Shown in pieces: positions 7,935 through 28,825 of a DNA stretch of 64,000 nucleotides. Numbering within the stretch: position 1 is the stretch's first letter; every line of letters starts with the position of its first letter. Source of the DNA: a virus (lineage: Duplodnaviria > Caudoviricetes). The notes under the pieces are model-generated. The model did not search any database. It worked only from the letters and a program-made list of their open reading frames with translations, and was not told the DNA's origin. Location of the stretch: IMG/VR virus record IMGVR_UViG_3300034073_003276. One strand, given 5' to 3'. The translations under genes were made by a program, and so were the position numbers.

Positions 7935-8491
7935 TACTTATAATGCAAATATGTGCTCATGATATACTTTGGACCACTTATTGTAGCATTTCCTTTATGT
8001 GGAAACATCCAAAGTGGTGGGAACACTAATAATGTTCCTTTCTTCGGTTGAATAGTCAAATCTTTAAATACGGTTTCCCCACCTGATTCTACATCATTCA
8101 AATACCACATGAAAGATAAAAATCTCCGTGCAGAAGGATAGTCTAGCACATCAACATGAGTATCAAAACGATCTTCACCACCAGGATTATACTTCTTTAT
8201 ACGAAATTGCTCAAAAGCATGGTCTGTAGGAAACACTCTTTTATCCACAAATTCATAATACTTATCACGATAAGTAAAAACATTTTTAATTACATGATTA
8301 TGAACTTGATTGACCTCAGAAGAAATTTCCTTGTTTTCAGTTAGATTAAACTGGGTAAAGTTTGGTTTTCCTTCATTCTCAAATCTTTCATGCTTATCTG
8401 TTACCTGCTCAAATAATGAACTCAAGAAATCACAGATATCAGACTCTAAAGCGTTTTCATAGATGTGAATAAAATCATTAACTTCATCCAT
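7934..8491 (-). CDS. 2OG-Fe(II) oxygenase
   Basis: HVD...WYLNDVESGGET...FPH...KY pattern. Confidence 0.9.
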   Translation of the reverse strand: MDEVNDFIHIYENALESDICDFLSSLFEQVTDKHERFENEGKPNFTQFNLTENKEISSEVNQVHNHVIKNVFTYRDKYYEFVDKRVFPTDHAFEQFRIKKYNPGGEDRFDTHVDVLDYPSARRFLSFMWYLNDVESGGETVFKDLTIQPKKGTLLVFPPLWMFPHKGNATISGPKYIMSTYLHYK

Positions 8492-8493
8492 AA

Positions 8494-9072
8494 TTAATCT
8501 TCCTCTATATAAAAAATATCTGGATAATTTCCACTTTTTGCCCTATACCTCAATTGTCTTAAGGTTAAACCTTTTGCCCCACCATTTCTAAAACATTTGG
8601 AAGAATCTTCCCATATTATACCGTAAACCGATATTTTTTTTGAGTTGTAATTACTTACAGATTTTTTTATCTCACTTATCAAAGAAGCAGTTTCTGTAGA
8701 ATTAATTTTTCCAAGTTTATTCAGTAAGATGCTCTGCTCCCTTTTCTTTTGTTTATATTCTTCAGATTGATGCGATTGTTTCCATTTTTCAGATTTCAAT
8801 CTTGCCTCCGTTAGTTTTTCACTATCCCTTTTACATCGACTAACTTGATCTTCATAAATTTTAGTTAATTCTTCATCGGATAAATTTCCACCAAGAAGTT
8901 GAAAAGCATATAAATCAGATATATTTTTATATACTAACCAACGACGATAATGGACTTCTTGGTGAAGTTTTCTTGGAAGTTTAACTAAATTACTTGAATC
9001 GTCAGTGCCCCCTTCATGTTTCGGAATAATGTGGTGTGTGTCTATAAACATATATATATGGTTAGTAACCAT
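8494..9072 (-). mobile_element. Free-standing HNH homing endonuclease (start may be ATG 9051)
   Basis: HHIIPKHEGGTDDSSNLVKL...H motif; AT-rich; between uvsX and the oxygenase; GATAAATA at 9076-9083. Confidence 0.85.
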
Positions 9073-9074
9073 AC

Positions 9075-10091
9075 TTATTTATCATTCTTTAGTCCATATG
9101 AAAATTCCTTTTTAGCAATTTCGTCAAGTTTTTTCATTACATCATCAGTAAAATATTCTTCAGGATTTCTTAGAATCTCCTTACCGTAAATTTTCTTACC
9201 ATTGATTTCATATCTACCAGCAACATTTTTCCAAAGACCACCAATTTCACCAAGTTCAAGCAGACCATAATATCTATCCAGACCTCTTTCATCATAATAA
9301 AGACGCACTTCAACATCTTTATTTTCTTTACTTAAACGGGATTTGTGAGTTTTTGCCTTTACTATATTTCCAACAATTTCAGTCCCATCCTTTTCCTTCT
9401 TCTTGCTTAGGAAAATAATTGTAGAAGCAGCATACTTTAATCCAGATCCTCCAGATTGCTCTTGAGTTGGCACATAAGCACCGACAACTTGATATACATG
9501 ATTAGTGACAATCATAGGAATATTTGCTTGCCCCAGTTTTAGCGTAAGCATACGGAAAGCACCTTTAACAAGTTGCGATTTAGTCATATCACGCACCTGC
9601 TTATCATTCAATGCATCAGTAATTTCCTTTTCAGTTGAAAGCATACCCAAAGAGTCTAGAACAAACATACAAGGTTTACGTTCCTCTACTGGTTTTTTCA
9701 TATACAGATCAACTGCCTTGAGTGCTTTGCCACGAAACTCTTCAATAGTGACAACATTTACTACAACAAGTCGTTGTGTATCAACACCACGACTTTCTAA
9801 AAGAGATTTAGTGACAGCAGCCTCAGTGTCAAAGTAGAGACAGTAACCATCGGGATTAGTATCAAGAAAATTCTTAACCACTGCGAGAGAGAAAAAAGTC
9901 TTTCCAGTAGAAGACTCTCCAGCAATAGCAGTAATCTTATTCCCAGATACACCACCAAATATACTACCTGAAACCAGTGCATTAAAAATGTATGAACCAG
10001 TATCAACATAAGTTTCTGTCTCATCAATATCGGAAGCGAGTTTGGTATACTCCCCACCAACCTCCTTTACAATTTCTTTAAGAAAATCCAT
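9075..10091 (-). CDS. uvsX: RecA-like recombinase
   Basis: GESSTGKT, FDTE, LDSLG, SGLKYAAS motifs; ATG at 10091. Confidence 0.96.
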   Translation of the reverse strand: MDFLKEIVKEVGGEYTKLASDIDETETYVDTGSYIFNALVSGSIFGGVSGNKITAIAGESSTGKTFFSLAVVKNFLDTNPDGYCLYFDTEAAVTKSLLESRGVDTQRLVVVNVVTIEEFRGKALKAVDLYMKKPVEERKPCMFVLDSLGMLSTEKEITDALNDKQVRDMTKSQLVKGAFRMLTLKLGQANIPMIVTNHVYQVVGAYVPTQEQSGGSGLKYAASTIIFLSKKKEKDGTEIVGNIVKAKTHKSRLSKENKDVEVRLYYDERGLDRYYGLLELGEIGGLWKNVAGRYEINGKKIYGKEILRNPEEYFTDDVMKKLDEIAKKEFSYGLKNDK

Positions 10092-10228
10092 CACTTTTTC
10101 TCCTGAGTTTGTTTATCTGCATAATTCATTTTAAAGGTCCAAAGTTTCTGATATAGTGCAGTATCTCCACCAAGACGCATTGCATTAATAATTGTATTCA
10201 GTTCTCGCTCATTAATAGGTAATTCCAT
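10091..10228 (-). CDS. Small hypothetical protein (45 aa, MELPINEREL...), not in ORF track
   Basis: Hand-translated; TGATG overlaps at both ends between the polymerase and uvsX. Confidence 0.75.
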   Translation of the reverse strand: MELPINERELNTIINAMRLGGDTALYQKLWTFKMNYADKQTQEKK

Positions 10229-11394
10229 CAGGTAAAAAATAATTCTAGGTTAACAGTTTTTTCTACATTCCATCCAATCGAATCGAGAATGGACTTCAAG
10301 GGTTCTACAAAACTCTTTTCAAATTGTAATTCATAATCAATGTATTTGTCAAGACCAAGTTCCTTTGGAAAATCTTGAATGAATGAAATGATATTCTCTT
10401 GAATGATATTTGGTTTTTTCAAATATATAAACTTAATTTTTTCTCCATTACCAATCAATGAATACTTATTAGTTAATTTTTTCTCTTTTATATAATGATT
10501 AAAAAGAAGTGCTCCACGAATATGGATTGGTGTTTTTTGAGCATAGATTGTGGAAGAAGAATAATACTTACGCACATCAGAAGCAGTTCTTGGAAAGGCA
10601 ATTTGCTCTGGTGGAAGTCTTTTAAATTCCTCCCGACACTTATCAATAAAATTAATCACATCTTCTTCAGTACCATTCATCATCAACTTTAGACCATCTT
10701 TAATCATTTGACGACAAGGTGCTGGAGTAGAAGATTTAACTGCTTCAATACCCATCATTTTCAGTTTAGGTTCTTCATATCGTACACCCTCACTGTCCCA
10801 TACATTGAGAATGTATCGTTTCTTAGCAGTCCAGATTCCACGCTCAGCAATATTCTCACGCTTCATCTGCATCTTCTGATCGTAAGCATTTACATACTCA
10901 GCCAATTCTTCGTAGCAACCTTCAATATACTTTTCAAGTTCCACCTTACAGACCTTATCAAGGAACGAAACAATGCTTTGAGTAGTTTTCTCTCTTCCTT
11001 TGAATATACATTCAACCAAAGGACCCATATTGAGATAGATAGAATCAGTATCTGAAGCAATAACATAATCAATATCCTCCGTTTTAAGAACTTTATTTAA
11101 ATAAGAATTCATCTTATTTTCAATCCAGCGAATAGAAACCTGTCCTGACAAAGTAATTGCTTCAGCATTCGCTAGTTTATAATAACGGAAATACTGATTA
11201 CCAATGGCACCATAGGCAGAGTTAAGTTGAATCTTCCTTGCCATTTGAATATTGTTGCAGCGTGAGATTTCTTTTTCAGCAGAATTTCTTAGTTTAATTA
11301 ACTCTTTATCTGAAAGATTTTTATATTTGTTATCAGAAGAAACAACAATTTCTTTTTGTTTCTCCTCCTTGTTACCACCAATTAAGTAACCCAT
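10228..11394 (-). CDS. gp43B: DNA polymerase B, C-terminal subunit (gp43B)
   Basis: KIQLNSAYG (motif B), SDTDS (motif C), KKRY, GIEAVKSSTP, clamp-binding tail LELFF. Confidence 0.93.
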   Translation of the reverse strand: MGYLIGGNKEEKQKEIVVSSDNKYKNLSDKELIKLRNSAEKEISRCNNIQMARKIQLNSAYGAIGNQYFRYYKLANAEAITLSGQVSIRWIENKMNSYLNKVLKTEDIDYVIASDTDSIYLNMGPLVECIFKGREKTTQSIVSFLDKVCKVELEKYIEGCYEELAEYVNAYDQKMQMKRENIAERGIWTAKKRYILNVWDSEGVRYEEPKLKMMGIEAVKSSTPAPCRQMIKDGLKLMMNGTEEDVINFIDKCREEFKRLPPEQIAFPRTASDVRKYYSSSTIYAQKTPIHIRGALLFNHYIKEKKLTNKYSLIGNGEKIKFIYLKKPNIIQENIISFIQDFPKELGLDKYIDYELQFEKSFVEPLKSILDSIGWNVEKTVNLELFFT

Positions 11395-12863
11395 TACAGA
11401 ATGCCTCTACGCTTCATTTCTTCTTCAACATCGACTAGTTGTTGTTTTGCTGCCAACATTTTTTTCTTATAAACTGTGCGATCTTTATAGATTTTTTCCA
11501 TTAACTCTGGAAGAAATCCACGCACATCTTTGCGATACATTGCACCATTAGCGCATACTGCATAGTCTTTATACATCTCAAAAGTAATTTCTTGATTAAG
11601 AATTCTATCCACTGTTGCAGTTGGATGTCTATCATCAGTGAGAGTCTCAGGACTAATGTTATACATCATCATAAGGTGTGGATATAGAGAATTCAAGTCA
11701 AAACTTACAACCCAATCATACTTTCCGGGAATTGGTTCTTTTACATAAGCACCAGCATACTTAGAATCTTTCTCAGACTTTTCTTTGGGAGGAATTACAA
11801 TATTTCTCTTCTTGAGATAATTGTAAATGATAGTGTCCCACATTCTAACCTGAGAAAATACATCAGCATAGTTTGCCTTAGCATCATATGCCATCGTAAT
11901 TGCCAACTCAATCAGTTTCATCTTGTCTTCCAGGCGGTCAACAAGTTCCACGTCAATAATGTTGTATTCCACAAACTTTTGCCAACCCTTAGTATAGAAG
12001 TCTTTAAAAGTATCAAACTCAGAGTGGTCTAGTTTTTTCTGTCCCAACTCTACACTTGCAATGTAATCAAGTCGATAAGATTCTTGTGCCTTGTAGGTGA
12101 ATTTCTTATAGAGATTAAGATAATCAAGTTGAGTAATACCACCCACATCATAAGAAATATGTTTACGACCAGCAATATATGTTTCCCTTTCAGTCACAAG
12201 ACCCCAAGGAGACATACGCTTCATCAACTTTTCACCAAGAATTCTATCAATTCTACGCACAAGATATGGAATATCATACAATTCACTATTCCATCCAGTC
12301 ACAACCTCTGGAGTATTTGTTTCGATCATCCACCAGTTAATGAAATCATCTAACAATTCACGCTCAGTTCTAAATCCCTTGTAGATGACATTATCCTGTT
12401 TGTTTGTAAATGGACCTTTACCCCAAGTGCGAATCTGTTTAGAAGAATAATCCTGAATAGTGATCAACAATACTTCTTCTGCTGCAGACTCTACATCAGG
12501 GAATCCATTTTCAGATGCCACCTCAATATCCAAAGTTGTAATCTTAACTTTGTTAGTATCGAATTTGATTTCTTCTTCTGGATAGTTTTCTGAAATATAT
12601 TGGTAGATATATCCAGTGTTTCCGTAGATTTTAAAGTTTTCTACACCCTCATATTTTTTAATAAATTCACGACAGTCTCTAACACATCCTGGTTGGACTG
12701 CTTCAACATATTCACCTTCTAGAGTTTGATATTTAGTTTTTTTATTAGAGGGAACAAAAAGAGTCGGGTCAAACTTCTCACGGGTCATAAAGTGTTTACC
12801 ATCTTCATAACCACGGACCAAGAAGTGGTCCCCGACCATTTGCACGTTTGTGTAGAATCTCAT
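11394..12863 (-). CDS. gp43A: DNA polymerase B, N-terminal subunit (gp43A: exonuclease plus motif A)
   Basis: LDIE, GWNSELYDIPY, YNIIDV exonuclease motifs and SFDLNSLYP motif A; ends in TAA overlapping the ATG of gp43B. Confidence 0.93.
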   Translation of the reverse strand: MRFYTNVQMVGDHFLVRGYEDGKHFMTREKFDPTLFVPSNKKTKYQTLEGEYVEAVQPGCVRDCREFIKKYEGVENFKIYGNTGYIYQYISENYPEEEIKFDTNKVKITTLDIEVASENGFPDVESAAEEVLLITIQDYSSKQIRTWGKGPFTNKQDNVIYKGFRTERELLDDFINWWMIETNTPEVVTGWNSELYDIPYLVRRIDRILGEKLMKRMSPWGLVTERETYIAGRKHISYDVGGITQLDYLNLYKKFTYKAQESYRLDYIASVELGQKKLDHSEFDTFKDFYTKGWQKFVEYNIIDVELVDRLEDKMKLIELAITMAYDAKANYADVFSQVRMWDTIIYNYLKKRNIVIPPKEKSEKDSKYAGAYVKEPIPGKYDWVVSFDLNSLYPHLMMMYNISPETLTDDRHPTATVDRILNQEITFEMYKDYAVCANGAMYRKDVRGFLPELMEKIYKDRTVYKKKMLAAKQQLVDVEEEMKRRGIL

Positions 12864-28193: not shown

Positions 28194-28825
28194 TTTTGTT
28201 GTCTCCTACTATTTTCTTTTGCGGTTTTCATAAGATGCTCTTCGCGTGTAATAATTTGAAGATTGTTGGGATGATGCAACCCACCCTCAAATAAGGGAAT
28301 AATGTGATCTACATCATACTGCATACCAGTAGTAAAAGTCAAGTGTTGTGCTTGCTGATATATGTCCTGAATTTGACGAAGTTCTTCTTCAGTAATTTCT
28401 ATCGGTATTCCTTGTTTTAATCTAGCAAATCTTCTTCTTTGTTTTTCATAATTTACTGCTTTTCCTCTTTCACTTTTAGAATATTTTCTTTTAATTGAAT
28501 TTACTAACTCTCTATTATCCTCATAATATTTTTGTTTCTTTTCTTTTGTTCTATAAGAAGACATCAACTCTTTATTGTTAAGTTTTTCCAATCCCTTTGA
28601 TATAGCACAAGGGACACAGTTATAACTACTCACATATTTTTCATAACTACCACAATGTTTACAAGCAGTAGAACCGATATAAGTTTTTTTACCTTCCTCA
28701 ATTGCTTTCTCCCGAGCAGCACTTTTTTGAGTATACCCTTTTAATTTTGCCCTTTCTTTATTTTTCAATAGATTTTCCGCCATTATTTTTTTTCGTTCTT
28801 CTGGCGTGTATTTTGGTTTAGTCAT
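28190..28825 (-). mobile_element. Free-standing HNH homing endonuclease
   Basis: CKHC/CVPC zinc motif; C-terminal VDHIIPL...GGLHHPNNLQII...H; AT-rich; between gp55 and gp47. Confidence 0.88.

Follow-up and report, generated by a model that had tools for sequence, protein, structure and literature searches.

The 64,000-nucleotide (nt) stretch of viral DNA analysed here (IMG/VR record IMGVR_UViG_3300034073_003276; hereafter the window) belongs to a T4-like cyanophage. Its nearest relative is the freshwater Synechococcus phage S-SRM01, with ~84% nt identity across the region studied. On the minus strand of the window, the recombinase gene uvsX is followed by a gene for a free-standing HNH endonuclease. 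A preliminary description, made from the window sequence, had proposed that this enzyme targets a conserved site in uvsX of competing phages and shuts off its own promoter by binding a copy of that site in its leader. We compared the locus with homologous loci and evaluated the target, the leader, and the alternatives to autoregulation.

uvsX (9075-10094) encodes a RecA-like recombinase (Pfam RecA, 4.6e-19) and shows ~75-84% nt identity to cyanophage uvsX/recombinase genes. The endonuclease gene downstream of it (8494-9051) encodes 185 amino acids from its conserved start codon. All genes of the region lie on the minus strand, in the order DNA polymerase (two open reading frames [ORFs], 12863-11394 and 11394-10228), a small ORF, uvsX, the HNH gene, a 2OG-Fe(II) oxygenase gene (8491-7934), and the gp41 helicase gene (7934-6555). 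S-SRM01 has the same HNH gene, annotated "homing endonuclease", following its recombinase gene; the marine phage S-SM2 has no HNH gene. The gene was found downstream of uvsX in 36/36 fetched homologous loci (18 from IMG/VR and 18 from metagenomes, some of them identical contigs) and in two further loci, L028 and L029. Every endonuclease-bearing locus had it between uvsX and the 2OG oxygenase/gp41 genes, in the orientation of its neighbours. It was absent among the best 80 uvsX loci, except for the endonuclease-bearing contigs L063 and L113.

Pfam HNH (PF01844) matched 10/10 members of the protein family at 22.9-24.4 bits (gathering cut-off 21.4). The motif occupies residues 1-41 (9051-8929), at the extreme N-terminus, and can be aligned with the corresponding domains of McrA and a group II intron maturase. 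tblastn searches returned T-even MobE (~30% identity) and annotated homing endonucleases, with 29-34% identity and E values of 2e-5 to 7e-4. The gene is a Mob-type free-standing HNH homing endonuclease gene of T4-like phages. In the protein model, the HNH part is followed by a helical linker and a helix-turn-helix domain (residues 133-183; 8655-8503). The top Foldseek match of the model was the DNA-binding domain of I-TevI (1i3j; E 0.078, probability 0.99). VIA-align superposed residues 133-183 on the same domain with Z 6.2, a root mean square deviation of 2.4 Å, and 36% identity over 45 residues; for I-HmuI, Z was 4.9. The Pfam family I-TevI_DNA-bd (PF20987) matched 8/10 members weakly (best E 2.3e-4; 16.8 bits vs. 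a cut-off of 27). I-TevI was not among the matches of a sequence-profile search against solved structures, and surfaced in the fold comparison alone. The modelled C-terminus thus appears to resemble the I-TevI DNA-binding domain. S-SRM01 has two more Mob-like HNH genes, at ~207.8 kb and ~122.5 kb (L043 and L044), with 46% and 37% identity, respectively, over the HNH part.

Probable target and resistance site in uvsX

The uvsX set consisted of the 80 loci nearest to the window uvsX (83-96% protein identity), and all loci were sorted by presence of the HNH gene. The alignment contained 85 distinct alleles, 15 endonuclease-bearing and 70 endonuclease-free. Full-length alignment of UvsX revealed disjoint residue sets at only two columns, T vs. 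V/I/L and D vs. Q/S/E, directly after the residues TNH. Endonuclease-bearing loci encoded TNH-[V/I/L]-Y-[Q/S/E] in 38/38 cases, and none had the susceptible-type sequence. Endonuclease-free loci encoded TNH-T-Y-D in 77 cases and the resistant-type sequence in one (L097). The putative recognition and resistance site in the window (9489-9512, minus strand) has the codons I V T N H V Y Q, in which V (9497-9495, GTA) and Q (9491-9489, CAA) replace T and D.

Differentiation at the nucleotide level set in at the same place. Twelve alignment columns were strongly differentiated, all at column 602 (window position 9496) or later and none before. Column 602, the second base of the Thr/Val codon, separated the two groups completely: 15/15 endonuclease-bearing alleles had T there, and 70/70 endonuclease-free alleles had C. 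A windowed Fst-like measure was 0.02-0.10 over the first 600 nt, rose to 0.21-0.32 at and just past the site, and was 0.11-0.32 from there to the 3′ end. Trees of the two parts of the gene were discordant. In the 5′ tree (columns 1-597), the endonuclease label changed 9 times, with at least 6 changes forced by well-supported branches; holding the endonuclease-bearing alleles and L097 together cost 328 log-likelihood units and was rejected by the approximately unbiased (AU) test (p = 4e-13). In the 3′ tree (columns 598-1020), the label changed twice, and a clade of endonuclease-bearing alleles plus L097 was not rejected (AU p = 0.53). Pairwise maximum-chi-square breakpoints relative to the nearest endonuclease-free allele fell in columns 540-594 for 10 of the 15 alleles. 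S-SRM01 and an endonuclease-free phage were 95% identical in the 5′ part and 79% identical in the 3′ part. Deep-clade population structure was rejected as the cause of the differentiation, because the 5′ 600 nt of uvsX are undifferentiated and a single clade was rejected there.

The two disjoint columns after TNH, the onset of differentiation at this point, and the discordant 5′ and 3′ trees support the earlier proposal that the enzyme targets the TNH codons of uvsX. Its target is very probably the uvsX stretch for I-V-T-N-H-T-Y-D in phages without the gene, and the substitutions of T by V/I/L and of D by Q/S/E in carriers most likely protect their own DNA. A resistant allele together with a co-conversion tract is the pattern expected of a homing endonuclease, and cleavage at the site is predicted. 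Linkage of the resistant allele to the gene would be maintained by self-cleavage of any carrier whose site is susceptible, and the DNA between target and gene would be co-converted while the element spreads into different backgrounds. The 3′ uvsX segment 9075-9497 (minus strand), as delimited by the Fst-like profile, the differentiated columns, and the discordant trees, would be the tract inherited with the endonuclease gene by co-conversion or linkage.

The endonuclease-free locus L097 (IMGVR_UViG_3300022752_001165, uvsX at 1501-2502) has the HVYQV allele and groups with the carriers in the 3′ tree; in it, the uvsX stop and the 2OG oxygenase start overlap. L097 probably arose by recombination that retained the resistant site without the gene, or else by precise loss of the gene.

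A uvsX-linked endonuclease that cuts uvsX is not new. T4 SegA is encoded downstream of uvsX and cuts uvsX (PMC2988022, Table 1). Both elements are free-standing endonuclease genes directly downstream of uvsX, with uvsX as the known or predicted target gene; however, SegA is a GIY-YIG enzyme without sequence relationship to the HNH enzyme. What is new is a specific, comparatively mapped candidate target and resistance allele in cyanophage uvsX. The logic of this target resembles that of T4 MobE, for which Wilson and Edgell proposed binding on conserved codons and nicking of an adjacent polymorphic stretch, so that the host genome is spared (PMC2790892). The two enzymes are ~30% identical; they share an N-terminal HNH part and a distinct C-terminal DNA-binding part, a target in a neighbouring conserved gene, and co-converted flanks. 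Polymorphisms of MobE's host genome beside the conserved codons have likewise been proposed to prevent self-nicking. mobE differs in lacking its own promoter and in being restrained by an internal terminator; its target is nrdB, and no operator has been described. By the mechanism proposed for MobE, the DNA-binding part of the cyanophage enzyme would rest on I-V-T-N-H and the enzyme would act at T-Y-D.

The comparative result stands independently of any role of the leader. It narrows the probable site of action of an uncharacterised endonuclease in uvsX to a few codons, within a recombinase motif that is universally conserved and in which carriers have two natural candidate resistance substitutions. 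A further implication is that the gene, with its 3′ uvsX tract, is still spreading horizontally between cyanophages of diverse background; the cultured phage S-SRM01 carries the same element.

The leader of the endonuclease gene

HNH loci from IMG/VR (18), metagenomes (18, contigs partly shared), S-SRM01, and two more pattern matches yielded 26 distinct leaders. The preliminary description had placed the start codon at ATG 9072, which would give the protein an N-terminal VTNHIY peptide mirroring VTNHVY of UvsX. The window and 15 further leader types do have an open, in-frame ATG or GTG at this upstream position, and many gene callers chose it, giving lengths of 189-193 amino acids. However, this codon is not conserved: it was out of frame in 6 of the 26 leader types, separated from the gene by a stop codon in 4, and GTG in 3. 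The residues that it would add vary (VSNH, VNNH, VCYH), as non-coding sequence would. An MF[I/V]D start common to 26/26 leaders corresponds to ATG 9051 in the window. T-even MobE relatives and the group II intron maturase HNH domain align from this second Met, and the RefSeq annotation of S-SRM01 begins at it. By homologue comparison, the true start is ATG 9051; VTNHIY is therefore not part of the protein, and the homologues lend the proposed peptide mimicry no support. We consider translation from ATG 9072 very improbable.

On the minus strand, the leader reads ...AATGATAAATAAGT ATGGTTACTAACCAT ATATAT ATG TTT ATA GAC... The predicted late promoter is present where the preliminary description placed it: a T4-type late box, GATAAATA, occupies 9083-9076 and shares bases with the TAA stop of uvsX (9077-9075). 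The cyanophage late promoter consensus is NATAAATA (PMC2984593). The core ATAAAT was invariant in 26/26 leaders, and TATAAATA was present in 15 of them, including that of S-SRM01. ATAAATA occurs 24 times in the window vs. 25 expected by chance (22 of the 24 on the minus, coding strand); it is therefore conservation across leaders, and not enrichment, that supports the promoter call. In T4, the late box occupies positions -13 to -6 (PMC2988020). Application of this rule predicts a late start at about G9070, 6 nt after the end of ATAAATA and inside the palindrome described below.

After the box comes a 19-nt palindrome whose central base is free (9056-9074, minus strand; GTATGGTTA-C-TAACCATAT, consensus GTATGGTTANTAACCATAC), a candidate operator and target mimic that spans positions -4 to +15 relative to the predicted start. 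The palindrome ATGGTTA-C-TAACCAT noted earlier is indeed perfect, and the inverted repeat proved longer than claimed, with arms of 9-10 bp, or a stem of 8-10 bp with a 3-nt loop. A variable spacer (9052-9055; 3-7 nt in relatives) separates it from the start codon. The leader consensus is NATAAATA, then A-GTATGGTTA-N-TAACCATAC, the spacer, and ATG TTT ATA GAT.

Mean majority frequency within the palindrome was 0.94, vs. 0.76 at fourfold sites of the endonuclease gene, 3% of which were invariant. In IMG/VR the palindrome was confined to uvsX-endonuclease junctions, and the 64-kb window contains a single occurrence. The two additional Mob-like genes of S-SRM01 each had a perfect TATAAATA a few bases upstream, but their leaders lacked such a palindrome. 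A general regulatory motif was rejected in view of the single occurrence in the window; the extra pattern matches in IMG/VR (L023 and L039) were non-palindromic chance matches in unrelated contexts. An intrinsic terminator was also rejected, since the end of uvsX has no terminator-like site and the sole one lies inside the endonuclease gene (8611-8599). The palindrome is very probably a selected cis element. The stretch 9083-9049 is probably the control region of the Mob-type HNH gene, which was inserted directly after uvsX.

The reported 17/21 identity between leader positions 9072-9052 (ATGGTTACTAACCATATATAT) and uvsX positions 9512-9492 (ATTGTCACTAATCATGTATAT), both on the minus strand, was borne out. 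The uvsX site is the sole other match of at least 16/21 to the leader 21-mer in 64 kb, besides the leader's own reverse complement. First-order Markov shuffles produced a match of at least 17/21 in ~5% of 64-kb sequences and ~0.1% of uvsX-sized sequences, figures that are uncorrected for the original choice of this stretch. The match had been chosen after reading 64 kb, and is suggestive rather than decisive. It was not conserved: in 14 other endonuclease-bearing phages, the phage's own leader and own site agreed at just 10-14/21 positions, and the trailing ATATAT was found in the window and L004 alone. Conservation among homologues was the criterion set in the preliminary description, and the observation as originally worded fails it.

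The consensus leader had its best match in the uvsX profile, on either strand, at the target site (column 585/586, window position 9512), with p = 0.0002-0.004 in plain and palindrome-preserving shuffles. Its 17-mer ATGGTTACTAACCATAC matched susceptible alleles at a mean of 13.3/17 positions and a maximum of 16/17 (four alleles), vs. a mean of 11.6 and a maximum of 13 for resistant alleles. In 22 of 26 leaders the sequence "spells" V-[T/S/N/C]-N-H-T, including the Thr-codon AC missing from resistant alleles. The leader copies ATnGTnACnAAyCAyAC, the putative binding part of the target, but not the TAyGAy beside it. Its match stops at the differentiation boundary, which was found independently; by our own estimate, this adds a factor of a few percent. 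The idea of a target mimic is thus retained in altered form: the leader resembles the susceptible allele VTNHT (up to 16/17) and the phage's own resistant allele less well, and the 17/21 figure of the window is an outlier.

Chance resemblance without function would mean that an AT-rich leader is palindromic by accident. The genome is AT-rich, the match was picked from 64 kb, and a 12/15 match alone is not significant. However, conservation beyond synonymous sites across 26 leader types and a significant match to the susceptible allele, coinciding with the differentiation boundary, speak against accident, which we regard as extremely improbable.

Possible roles of the palindrome: operator, hairpin, or both

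A T4-type translational switch alone might account for the palindrome. An RNA hairpin would block ribosomes on early/middle read-through transcripts, the likeness to uvsX would be coincidence or a cassette relic, and the enzyme would not bind. This design is documented for I-TevI, I-TevII, I-TevIII, segB, and Aeh1 mobE (PMC2988022), and was found in 15 of 16 endonuclease leaders of cyanophage-like metagenomic loci, 10 of which had TATAAATA (PMC2677866). As in the T-even and "fractured genes" switches (PMC2988022, PMC2677866), the late box lies directly upstream, the stem-loop is predicted on longer transcripts only, and the gene is inside an early/middle replication-gene cluster, in the same orientation. 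By prediction, the late box is placed so that late transcripts miss the 5′ arm of the hairpin. The hairpin folded at -4.4 to -10.6 kcal/mol (mean -8.0) in 26/26 leaders, and predicted late leaders folded at about -2.5. Its central loop base is free. G-C had become G-U in three leaders, and in one an A-U pair was replaced by G-C in compensatory fashion; L060 has TT..AA in place of the outer AA..TT pairs.

Other features fit the hairpin less well. Covariation (87.8% of cells paired, 3 pairs with double changes) was not above controls, in which 33-71 of 500 shuffles reached the observed value; an RNA structure is therefore neither confirmed nor ruled out by this comparison. The five inner pairs are invariant, and four leader types have an uncompensated A.C mismatch that in terms of the target is a silent CAT-to-CAC change. 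Relative to the hairpins of the known switches, this one is weaker (mean -8 kcal/mol). Both the AUG and any ribosome-binding (Shine-Dalgarno) sequence are outside it, and it ends 3-7 nt upstream of the AUG, a situation resembling the unresolved seg43(25) case (PMC2988022); interference with 30S binding is still conceivable. A further difference is that the stem sequence itself is conserved, far above synonymous sites, and matches the enzyme target. If the hairpin were the only function, coincidence would have to explain both the match (p ~0.0002-0.004) and its landing on the uvsX site marked by fixed differences. The hairpin acting alone is a possible explanation that we do not favour.

The palindrome might also be the operator of another dimeric DNA- or RNA-binding regulator, of phage or host, unrelated to the specificity of the endonuclease. 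Sites of dimeric repressors classically look like this one: perfect, conserved 9+1+9 palindromes, free at the centre and placed over a transcription start. However, more sites would be expected of such a regulator than the one in the 64-kb window and those at uvsX-endonuclease junctions; the leaders of the two other S-SRM01 Mob-like genes lack the motif, and the likeness to the uvsX target is left unexplained. We judge this explanation improbable.

Our preferred explanation combines the uvsX target, the co-conversion tract, an operator in the leader, and a hairpin layer; as a whole, it is about evenly balanced between right and wrong. The I-TevI-like helix-turn-helix at the C-terminus would bind the leader palindrome without cutting. 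Bound across the predicted late start, the enzyme would block the polymerase and limit its own late transcription. We rate binding of the palindrome as an operator as at best an even prospect, perhaps slightly less. On read-through transcripts from uvsX, the palindrome would fold into an 8-10 bp hairpin shortly before the AUG. Late transcripts, starting in the 5′ arm, could not form it, which would provide a second, translational layer of T4 type. We rate such a switch as slightly more likely than not. Operator and switch are not mutually exclusive, and both layers are likely to be present here.

The precedent for the operator is I-TevI, encoded in the T4 td intron, whose operator is 15/20 identical to the homing site and overlaps a late promoter (Edgell et al. 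2004, reviewed in PMC2988022). This operator is bound as well as the homing site but cut ~100-fold less efficiently, because the cleavage motif is missing; binding represses transcription (PMC2988022). In both systems, a target-like sequence upstream of the ORF (15/20 identical in I-TevI, 13-16/17 here) covers the enzyme's own late promoter region, a predicted one in the present case, and is without the cleavage-associated part. The C-terminal helix-turn-helix domain predicted for the present enzyme appears I-TevI-like, and I-TevI too combines an operator with a late-promoter hairpin. However, I-TevI is an intron-encoded GIY-YIG enzyme with a non-palindromic operator, whereas the present enzyme is a free-standing HNH protein whose putative operator is a perfect palindrome and coincides with the hairpin. 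Binding and repression are proven for I-TevI and proposed here. The element is SegA-like in locus and probable target gene, MobE-like in target logic, and probably I-TevI-like in self-control.

Several points weigh against the combined explanation. Because the 3′ haplotype of the carriers arose once, the association of gene and resistant allele amounts to one historical event plus maintained linkage, not to a set of independent replicates. The late promoter and start are predicted from T4 rules rather than mapped in cyanophages. The match to the I-TevI domain falls under the Pfam cut-off (16.8 vs. 27 bits), and a Z of 6.2 is only middling. Modular I-TevI-type enzymes are monomers that act on asymmetric sites, and their operator needs no perfect palindrome. 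Opposite the palindrome centre (C, G, or A), the target has the invariant C of a Thr codon (ACN), and leader positions opposite target wobble positions are nearly invariant; a free centre together with invariant wobble-matching positions fits a symmetry or hairpin constraint better than pure mimicry. The leaders of the window, L004, and L005 have T at the discriminating C of the susceptible target.

A stronger version of the combined explanation assigns two roles to the one 19-nt palindrome, that of a DNA decoy of the homing site at the late start and that of an RNA hairpin silencing read-through. The natural target ATyGTTACTAACCAT is itself a near-palindrome arising from the I-V-T-N-H codons. 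The leader palindrome would then possibly be bound by two molecules, or in either orientation. We consider this dual role unlikely. If true, it would make the enzyme the first autoregulated free-standing homing endonuclease, with the codon symmetry of a conserved motif exploited as a regulatory element.

A candidate operator for a free-standing HNH enzyme is new; so is a candidate merger of operator and hairpin in one palindrome built on the near-palindromic I-V-T-N-H codon string. Our literature searches gave T4 reviews only; we found no paper describing this operator/target arrangement, and the S-SRM01 paper is silent on the gene. To our knowledge, autorepression of a homing endonuclease via a copy of its target is proven for I-TevI only, and has been proposed for just two other T4 intron-encoded enzymes. 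If it operates here, self-restraint would be a general solution for selfish nucleases rather than the peculiarity of one intron, in cyanophages that are environmentally abundant.

Cassette flanks and further observations

A direct repeat, TATGGA, flanks the inserted cassette on the minus strand. The upstream copy (9093-9098) is formed by the Y-G codons of uvsX; the downstream copy (8487-8492) includes the 2OG-Fe(II) oxygenase start codon (ATG, 8491). L097, which is endonuclease-free, has just one TTATGGATGA, and this links the uvsX stop to the 2OG oxygenase start; in the window, the cassette lies between two copies. Insertion would thus have kept both the end of uvsX and the downstream start.

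Upstream of uvsX, the gp43 DNA polymerase gene (10228-12863, minus strand) consists of two ORFs with a stop/start overlap (TAATG) at ~11394 and extra residues on both sides of the break. The S-SRM01 DNA polymerase is encoded by one unbroken 834-amino acid gene, which aligns to both window pieces (89% and 85% identity). The HNH motif of the endonuclease also has a second, weak match at 28235-28324 (minus strand; tblastn E 0.013, 43% identity over 30 residues), which may be another HNH gene or a remnant.

Public RNA runs, represented by contigs in which no 5′ ends are visible, contained just 5-7% of the sampled words. Public DNA runs with 94-97% of 8494-10094 carried soil/subsurface metagenome labels and came from a single study, an odd habitat for a cyanophage-like genome. 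DNA runs with partial matches (28-41% of 8494-10094) were from freshwater, estuary, and marine metagenomes.

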